Source: Laetmonice hystrix
Lineage: Eukaryota
Reading direction: 5' to 3'
Length of the DNA stretch: 64,000 bases
Assembly (NCBI GenBank): GCA_965235115.1
Contig: OZ249436.1
Coordinates: forward strand, 22,632,001 to 22,696,000
The stretch's first letter is position 1. The number at the start of each line of letters is the position of its first letter. The notes under the pieces were generated by a model. That model did not search any database. It saw only the letters and a list, made by a program, of their open reading frames with translations, and had not been told where the DNA came from. A program made the translations under genes and the position numbers. Shown one piece after another: positions 12,184 through 15,076 of this stretch.

Positions 12184-12696
12184 TGTTACAACTTGAATGT
12201 TGAGTTGTAGTGAAGACTTGTAGACTTGTAGCTGTGGTATTCCAATATGCGCTTTATTGTAGGGGGATATCCACCCTACCCTCCAGAGGTACAGTTGCAA
12301 CGATAAATACAGTTCTCTCCCCTACATCACTTTGGGGACTCTCTATATATCCTTGTTGAGGTTAAACAAAGGATTAACAAACTATTCAGGGGTTTGGCTT
12401 TAACAGCTTTCACACTCAGAAGCTGACAGAACCTTGGCAGGCCTTCACAGGTAGACCAGCCACAATGGCATTTACCGGCTAGCCATGTAACACAATAGGT
12501 GTCATTGGTGACATTAAGCACACTGAATATTATGACAGCTTTTCTCCAAACCCTTACAAAATACTAAAATATACAATATGCCTCCAACTATAGGAATATA
12601 TATAATATAGTTCAGTATTAAGGAACTATAACATTAAGGAGAGGAAATATATTATTATGCATGAAGTGAAAAATATGTAAGGATGTATCCGTAACA
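12184..12696 (-). repeat. 3' LTR (513 bp)
   Basis: About 99% identical to 14565-15076; TG...CA ends. Confidence 0.95.
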
Positions 12697-12944
12697 TTGC
12701 CTCCTTGTTTGAAAAGAGCGGCACCTCCGCTGTGCCGTACAAATAGAAACAATTACACCAGGTACTTAATTGGTACCTTTTGACTAGCAGATGAAACAAA
12801 AATATTTGGTTCATTACATAAATAATCACATATTCATTGATTATAAACCAAGTGATTATATCTACAACCTTCATAAATATACAAAGAACTGTTTTTACCA
12901 TATTATTGTCCTTTATAAAATGTGCAAAGCAGAAAATATTATGG

Positions 12945-14498
12945 CTAAGAAGCATTTACAGCTCTTTTCCAAGCTGGAATCCAAAGGTCTTTGCTAGCAC
13001 TGTTCTTGTGGGGTTTCATCTCAATGGGAGGTGGTTGAAGTGGTACCGAGTACATGTAGTTGGGAGGGCGTGGTCCTGGACAGTTGGTAGGACATGGTCC
13101 TGAGCAGGTGGGAGGACATGGTCCTGAGCAGGTGGGAGGACATGGTCCTGAGCAGGTGGGAGGAGAGGGGGCACAAGGAGGACGTGGTCCTGGGAGATGT
13201 GGGATAAAAAATGGTCCTCCTGTCAAAGGTGCCCTGAATGGCGGATCTACTGGTCCATCAAAATATCTGTCGCCAGGCTCATACTCATCACAATCAAATT
13301 CACTGCCTCCTTCACTCTTGCATATATCAAGGACGTCACAATCACAAACGAAAATATCATGTTGGTTATGTAGGACCATGGTCACTTTGAGATCCTCCTT
13401 AAACAAAAATGACGGCAATGTACCCAGAGGAAACTTGTCCATTAAACGGTAGTGAAGACCGTTAAATTGCACGATAAAAGTTGACCAAACATCCCTATTG
13501 TCAGCAAACAAACGGGATATCTCAGCAGACACTGATTTTCTTTGATGCCTAAGAATGGGTTTTAGGTTGACATCTTTAGTGAAAATCTTAGATCCAAAAG
13601 AAATCTGCACGGGCAGTTTGGAATTTGGTGGCTGATTCTGTGGGAAGATTTCATTTAAAAATGGAAGATCCGATAGTCTTGACCTGCTGAAGAATTCATC
13701 CATAAAGAGCGGATCAGCAAATTCTGTTTTGGGCTCTGTTTGGCTGGAGATTGATTGTAGACTTGGTGAGGTAGTTGTCTTCAACTCCTCGATTTCTTGT
13801 TCTTTTCTGGCCAATGCTGAAGATAACAACTGAATGGTGCCGAGGTACTCCTCTAATTTTAACTTCAGTGCAGCATTTTCTGCCTTCTGTTGTCTGGCGG
13901 TCTCACTGAGCAACTGTGTCTGTTCTTTAAATATTAAAAAGTTCTGTTGTCCCTCTCTGGTAAGTTGAGCACACCTTGCACGTAGATCGGATGTTTCCTT
14001 TCTCAGAGACGATACAGTGCTCAATATTTGTGGCAGACGACTTGTAACTTGGTCTGGTTCTGTTTGGCATGACGTTTCAGTTGTACTTGGTATTACAGTC
14101 TGGGCCCCTGTAGATGAAGTTGAGTTTGAGATTTGAATGTTCTTTACCTGGTGATGAATTACTTTTGGAGGCTTGGTGTACAGGGAGGCTCCAAGATGGT
14201 TGTTACTGATGTTAGCAAATGGAAGGGACATCATAACACCTTTCCTTTGGATAAATTCTTCCATCCGGCGCTGGTCTCTGGCACGCTGCTTCCTGGGTCT
14301 ATTCTGCCTCTCTGGGGTTTCCACAGATCGAGAGAAACACATCCTCATAAAGTGGCCTTGGACACCACACTTGTAGCACTTCCGGCTGAAAGCTGTGCAA
14401 AAGTGGCGAGGTGACCAAGGGAAACCACACCTATAGCACTGGTTTCTGCTCTGGCCATGTTGGATCATGATGTTCTTGCTTATCCTCTGGTTTTCCAT
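12945..14498 (-). CDS. 517-aa LTR-element protein: N-terminal double zinc knuckle, coiled coil, unknown globular region, Pro/Cys-rich tail
   Basis: Intact ORF filling most of the internal region; CYRCG..H.C plus CYKCGVQGHFMRMC (CX2CX4HX4C) as in Gypsy Gag nucleocapsid; heptad-rich segment at about aa 160-240; (PPTCSGPC)n tail. Confidence 0.85.
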   Translation of the reverse strand: MENQRISKNIMIQHGQSRNQCYRCGFPWSPRHFCTAFSRKCYKCGVQGHFMRMCFSRSVETPERQNRPRKQRARDQRRMEEFIQRKGVMMSLPFANISNNHLGASLYTKPPKVIHHQVKNIQISNSTSSTGAQTVIPSTTETSCQTEPDQVTSRLPQILSTVSSLRKETSDLRARCAQLTREGQQNFLIFKEQTQLLSETARQQKAENAALKLKLEEYLGTIQLLSSALARKEQEIEELKTTTSPSLQSISSQTEPKTEFADPLFMDEFFSRSRLSDLPFLNEIFPQNQPPNSKLPVQISFGSKIFTKDVNLKPILRHQRKSVSAEISRLFADNRDVWSTFIVQFNGLHYRLMDKFPLGTLPSFLFKEDLKVTMVLHNQHDIFVCDCDVLDICKSEGGSEFDCDEYEPGDRYFDGPVDPPFRAPLTGGPFFIPHLPGPRPPCAPSPPTCSGPCPPTCSGPCPPTCSGPCPTNCPGPRPPNYMYSVPLQPPPIEMKPHKNSASKDLWIPAWKRAVNAS

Positions 14499-14564
14499 GT
14501 CTTCACTGAGGTACGGGGATCGTGTGTAAAGTCAGAATTTACACAAACCGGGTTCTCTCACCAC

Positions 14565-15076
14565 TGTTACAACTTGAATGTTGAGTTGTAGTGAAGACTT
14601 GTAGACTTGTAGCTGTGGTATTCCAATATGCGCTTTATTGTAGGGGGATATCCACCCTACCCTCCAGAGGTACAGTTGCAACGATAAATACAGTTCTCTC
14701 CCCCACATCACTTTGGGGACTCTCTATATATCCTTGTTGAGGTTAAACAAAGGATTAACAAACTATTCAGGGGTTTGGCTTTAACAGCTTTCACACTCAG
14801 AAGCTGACAGAACCTTGGCAGGCCTTCACAGGTAGACCAGCCACAGTGGCATTTACCGGCTAGCCATGTAACACAATAGGTGTCATTGGTGACATTAAGC
14901 ACACTGAATATTATGACAGCTTTTCTCCAAACCCTTACAAAATACTAAAATATACAATATGCCTCCAACTAGGGAATATATATAATATAGTTCAGTATTA
15001 AGGAACTATAACATTAAGGAGAGGAAATATATTATTATGCATGAAGTGAAAGATATGTAAGGATGTATCCGTAACA
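14565..15076 (-). repeat. 5' LTR (512 bp)
   Basis: Partner of 12184-12696; followed on the minus strand by the PBS-like sequence. Confidence 0.95.

Follow-up and report, generated by a model that had tools for sequence, protein, structure and literature searches.

LTR elements that depend on others for mobility have been regarded either as non-coding (TRIM, LARD) or as having kept Gag. Among the latter, TR-GAG (PMC6022998) and RLG_Quinta (PMC11302176) are the closest described systems; in the cited parts of these reports, they combine LTRs, PBS, PPT and TSD with one ORF and no RT/RH/IN, retain a recognisable Gag, and depend on an autonomous partner through shared cis signals. We analyzed a stretch of 64,000 nt of Laetmonice hystrix DNA (GCA_965235115.1, contig OZ249436.1, 22,632,001-22,696,000 of the forward strand; hereafter the window), which holds an LTR element of 2,893 bp on the minus strand at positions 12184-15076. 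Like TR-GAG and RLG_Quinta, it has the features of a non-autonomous LTR retrotransposon, i.e. paired TG...CA LTRs, TSD, PBS, PPT and no pol. Unlike them, it resides in an animal, no matched partner was found for it here, and its 517-aa ORF lacks the Gag with a capsid domain by which they are defined, being instead modular and composed of knuckles, a coil, LC8-type motifs and an orphan domain. Since it codes for a selected 517-aa protein, the element is not a TRIM or LARD. We found no description of such pol-less, capsid-less coding LTR elements in the literature (repeat databases lay outside the scope), and the element is real and seems to be a previously undescribed variant of the non-autonomous LTR element.

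All the landmarks named in the original prediction, namely near-identical LTRs, a TSD, a PBS and PPT and a single intact 517-aa ORF, are present (cf. Table 1), and the two LTRs differ by four substitutions and one gap. Protease, RT, RH and IN are absent from the element, despite independent recent insertions of the family, and the only other sense frame of at least 100 aa in it, running from stop to stop over 109 aa, is located in its AT-rich 3' part. The insertion target was a very high-copy repeat (window positions 11500-12183 and 15077-15400). Short palindromic GGAAACCATGGTTTCC repeats lie near the right flank, at 15371-15477 and 15795-15881. Elsewhere in the window, at 25387-26202 on the minus strand, there is a 271-aa frame that resembles, by its motifs, a LINE ORF1 fragment (coiled coil and RRM-like part) to which a NADAR-like stretch is joined downstream.

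Table 1 Positions of the features of the element in the window
Feature	Positions	Strand	Remarks
3' LTR	12184..12696	-	513 bp, TG...CA
5' LTR	14565..15076	-	512 bp
TSD TAAT, 4 bp	left 12180..12183, right 15077..15080	.	flanks the element
PBS-like 16-mer TGGTGAGAGAACCCGG	14548..14563	-	1 nt inside the 5' LTR; common to autonomous Gypsy families
Polypurine tract, T-run before it	12697..12716	-	beside the 3' LTR; layout as in autonomous same-PBS families
Single ORF, 517 aa + stop	12945..14498	-	under purifying selection
Two Gag-type zinc knuckles, aa 21-54	14337..14438	-	Pfam zf-CCHC E 1.4e-4
Basic helix R-D-x-R-R-M + LPF motif, aa 66-96	14211..14303	-	
First LC8-type motif, Q133	14094..14108	-	A-Q-T in this element; B, D and E have T-Q-T
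Best LC8-type motif, S143-C-Q145-T146-E	14058..14081	-	S, Q, T invariant in 8/8 aligned proteins
Coiled coil, aa 155-243	13770..14036	-	pLDDT >90
Third TQT-type motif, Q253	13734..13748	-	after coiled coil; in A, C, P0001, P0002
Conserved ~130-aa domain, aa 258-389	13332..13727	-	also in knuckle-less families I-N
24-bp tandem repeats, Pro/Cys tail	13058..13177	-	copy number varies; dN/dS near 1
C-terminal W-I-x-x-W-x-x-x-V-N-A-S motif	12948..12983	-	common to families A, B, G, H

The sole Pfam family above the cut-off in the 517-aa protein was zf-CCHC, and the first knuckle cysteine is residue 21, a knuckle-first layout that leaves no room for a capsid, as had been claimed. The one confident feature of the AlphaFold model was helix 155-243, and neither a capsid fold nor a capsid helix bundle was seen in it, so that structure prediction agrees with the capsid-less reading. 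A Gag family of Pfam was matched by none of eight family members, while an autonomous Gag does match Retrotrans_gag. The expected coiled coil and Pro/Cys repeat tail were both found. As for the motif M[ED]EF...LPF.N, said to occur twice, both stretches are present as written, but an internal duplication is unsupported in homologues: the likeness of the two stretches (P 0.003) is restricted to subfamily A and was not reproduced in six of six homologues (P 0.16-0.75), and their profile-profile comparison gave a Prob of 0.6%.

The globular segment of the original prediction exists, but it is about 130 aa long and not 90. In the model (pLDDT 46), it is composed of an F.D..F / LP.L helical lead and a beta-beta-alpha-beta-beta-beta core. 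The suggested ubiquitin-like fold drew several weak hints, but no significant structure or profile match. Foldseek returned nothing at E<=0.001 for this domain, its top row being a ubiquitin-like domain (E 0.08, TM 0.16); among the matches listed, 27 of 45 rows presumably contain beta-grasp folds, judged by their labels, and 10 of these 27 are PI3K entries. The only Pfam rows for the M/N domain, TmoB (E 0.045) and USP7_C2 (E 0.12), are beta-grasp folds, and for family I the Atlas entry is Rad60-SLD at 0.75. No support came from VIA-align or from testing profiles against ubiquitin-like domains of the host. From the modelled fold and these hints, we consider the domain to be possibly ubiquitin-like, with the balance standing about level. 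Genes encoding divergent ubiquitin-like domains in tandem are clustered on C8 (L286-L287).

A genome-wide search for siblings revealed eight full-length copies in the 627-Mb genome, of which seven have kept the ORF intact and the eighth contains a stop. The LTR-only matches that were fetched proved to be solo LTRs in 4/4 cases, and read depth in the element was about 6-fold that of its least-covered flank (one sample). Searching the genome with the domain gave 35 matches, leading to four sister subfamilies, B-E (the window copy being A), which are 2.8-3.2 kb long, pol-less and carry one homologous ORF with 33-64% protein identity. An exact 4-bp TSD was present in 18 of 19 whole elements, the boundary set for the 19th being off by 2, and LTRs were identical in 12 of 19 related elements, which, together with the near-identical LTRs of the window copy, bears out a recent insertion. 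In public assemblies, four homologous clusters were found at 50-58% identity.

Between subfamilies, dN/dS was 0.18-0.36 in seven of ten pairs, with dS saturated in the remaining three, and it was 0.37 within A (P 6e-4) and 0.42 within C (P 2e-4). The globular domain is the most conserved part (residues 259-388; dN/dS 0.15-0.21 where estimable), and the linkers and the Pro/Cys tail are near neutral (dN/dS near 1). Open frames across saturated divergence, combined with near-identical LTRs, indicate that the protein is functional and old and the insertions young. Purifying selection within and between subfamilies, with the frames kept open, thus supports the view that the ORF is functional, as these substitution patterns would imply. 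The opposite view, that of a neutral deletion derivative or a chance ORF, could appeal to the broken copies and to the near-neutral tail and linkers, but it is barely credible: the frames have stayed open over saturated synonymous distances, the domain has been constrained, homologues at 50-58% identity exist in public assemblies, and dN/dS both between and within subfamilies refutes it.

Six further pol-less families of the same PBS class carry shuffled modules. G and H keep the knuckles, coil and tail and are missing the C-terminal domain; I-N keep the C-terminal domain, are missing the knuckles and coil, and contain up to six TQT-type motifs. The basic Arg-rich helix is present in A-E and I-N. 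The G and H elements (L170-L174) are pol-less, 2.2-2.7 kb long, and have knuckles, a coil and a W..W...VNAS tail with no globular domain, and families I, J, K and M/N (L185-L255) comprise young LTR elements by the dozen, pol-less and with an ORF of ~370 aa that has no knuckles. M/N look like recombinants in which the N-terminus of K is joined to a C-terminal domain that has diverged, and locus L240 consists of three internal units in tandem. The window element is one of many such parasites in this genome, which together form a large modular set. This wider modular superfamily and the TQT/LC8 motifs go beyond the earlier reading.

TQT-type motifs are the sole feature common to all 11 pol-less proteins, and in A-E two of them, spaced 11-12 residues, lie upstream of the coil. 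The pattern [TSVIC]-Q-T was defined after the motifs had been inspected, with 1,000 local shuffles as control. In the low-complexity linkers of the 11 proteins, it occurs 27 times, the shuffled sequences giving 8.0 on average and 19 at most, and exact TQT 19 times vs 3.8, though the proteins are related to each other and the pooled P is therefore overstated. Five autonomous Gags gave three TQT-type motifs vs 1.5 in shuffles and no exact TQT vs 0.3. Exact TQT is absent from the window's own protein, which has A-Q-T, C-Q-T and S-Q-T, and enrichment in A alone reached P 0.01 with global and 0.06 with local shuffles. According to the cited part of PMC6607443, LC8 prefers an anchor, acidic +2, an adjacent coiled coil and multivalency. 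The motifs of the pol-less proteins match these preferences, with a conserved TQT-type anchor, as in LC8 (DYNLL) clients, lying in a disordered region near a dimerisation domain, and the element protein is predicted to dock the host hub LC8. Binding of LC8 usually serves dimerisation, not dynein transport, in the accounts that we drew upon. Three intron-less LC8 coding sequences were seen on C18 (L181-L183).

The PBS pattern had 72 matches vs one in the control and varies at two internal positions across families (72 loci); its cognate tRNA was not found among the tRNA genes of the assembly. Thirty-six loci with this PBS were read over 10 kb each in search of autonomous partners, and among them are five autonomous gag-pol Gypsy families. 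Their TSD is 4 bp where readable, their PPT layout is identical to that of the element, and four of the five have the same double-knuckle pattern. Two of the five contain a third ORF that looks env-like, since it has a signal peptide, a fusion-peptide pattern and a basic site for cleavage, although Pfam gave no match for it. Cis signals and the knuckle pattern support a probable Gypsy link. The proposed parasitism on an autonomous Gypsy stands as far as pol-less dependence and the shared PBS, TSD length and PPT are concerned, but a partner with matching LTR ends is missing: none of the same-PBS loci read had the TGTTAC...GT(A/G)ACA ends of A-E. The LTR ends of I-N match autonomous F1/F3/F4/F5. 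At E<1e-3, no DNA similarity was detected between five pol-less representatives and 35 PBS-bearing loci, and with the knuckle profile, a Mag-type Gag reached a score (E 7e-11) no worse than those of the Gags from PBS-sharing families (3e-10 to 4e-3). In autonomous Gypsy families (L090, L093, L116, L118, L123), gag and pol occupy one frame with a single stop between them, which suggests read-through, and some of these loci carry the env-like third ORF. Many loci (L102, L106, L109, L110, L112, L114, L119) are internally deleted F1 derivatives of 5.5-5.9 kb with near-identical LTRs and represent a second, non-coding kind of parasite on the same helper.

These findings led us to hypothesize, with belief and doubt in roughly equal measure, that this young, multi-copy, pol- and capsid-less LTR element borrows Gypsy Gag, reverse transcriptase and integrase, and that its protein is an RNA adaptor dimerised by LC8. 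The borrowed proteins would be taken from autonomous Gypsy elements, the knuckles and basic helix would bind the element's own RNA in cis, the coiled coil and host LC8 would zip two chains into a rod, and the C-terminal domain would dock on a host or helper protein. The RNA would thus be delivered where helper particles assemble, possibly via dynein transport into the germ line, to be copied and inserted by helper reverse transcriptase and integrase, and such cis delivery would give copies with an intact ORF an advantage. More tentatively, and with some doubt, the reading may be extended to a satellite class of young pol- and capsid-less LTR families parasitising env-bearing Gypsy elements through a mix-and-match protein with an LC8-ladder core, by which a host hub would be hijacked and RNA routed into helper particles or LC8-dependent silencing disarmed.

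The protein might instead act in counter-defence and keep the element's locus or RNA from being silenced, for example as a sink for LC8 or as a mimic of a ubiquitin-like module on which the piRNA machinery depends; in Drosophila, the PICTS complex, which silences transposons, cannot dimerise without LC8/Cut-up (PMC7861614, part cited). The motifs of the I-N proteins, up to six in number, and their lack of knuckles fit a sponge better than an RNA packager, and the possibly ubiquitin-like domain is the best-conserved part. We nevertheless regard this function as unlikely, since A-H retain nucleocapsid-type knuckles and a trans-acting suppressor would benefit all copies, which makes selection on each lineage's own ORF harder to explain; also, Panoramix is not known outside flies. 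A Rev/CERV-like factor for nuclear export or processing of the element's own or helper unspliced RNA, with LC8 merely stiffening the oligomer, would agree with the Arg-rich helix of A-E and I-N and has a precedent in Cer1 CERV, which combines globular domains with a leucine zipper and a Cys-rich loop and is required for gRNA export; CERV, however, is made by an autonomous element, and no TQT ladder is described in the cited part of PMC10309623. No splice-dependent need is seen in an intron-less 2.9-kb element either, and we consider this role distinctly unlikely. Knuckles, followed by a long coiled coil and by a domain folded at the C-terminus, are reminiscent of an ORF1-type layout, as if Pol alone were borrowed and the protein, in the manner of LINE ORF1 or telomeric Gag, assembled into an RNP shell or filament of its own. 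Gag-only partners do exist (RLG_Quinta, PMC11302176), but the model shows no capsid helices, no Gag family was matched, and it is the TQT motifs alone, unlike a structural shell, that all families share, which makes a particle former quite improbable.

At least 11 active families here keep a selected non-capsid protein with swappable modules around LC8-type motifs. If the adaptor reading is true, this would be a route for a retrotransposon's parasite to gain helper particles or the germ line, LC8 would join the host factors involved in LTR mobility, and a further orphan domain, one that is perhaps ubiquitin-like, would be added. Candidate helpers, as distinct from the element itself, are the autonomous, env-bearing 'ancient errantivirus' Ty3/Gypsy elements (PMC13524379): one polychaete ENV_F element has an identical 12-nt PBS and another a PBS with one base different, neither with an exact tRNA match, and the main text of that paper contains 0 occurrences of 'non-autonomous', 'zinc' or 'ubiquitin'. 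The CERV of C. elegans Cer1 is likewise a non-capsid retrotransposon protein; it has orphan globular domains besides a zipper and acts on element RNA, but it is a spliced accessory gene product and not knuckle-first (PMC10309623). The LC8 clients ASCIZ, Panoramix and viral phosphoproteins have TQT-type motifs in a disordered linker beside a coiled coil (PMC6607443, PMC7861614), and in the RNA-dynein adaptor Egalitarian and LC8 clients the RNA-binding part is placed at one end, as is the putative one of the element protein; for these proteins of hosts or viruses binding has been measured, whereas the element protein shows the motifs only. Finally, HeT-A RNPs are reported to use host Egalitarian (PMC6114517, part cited), whereas the adaptor proposed here would be encoded by the element.
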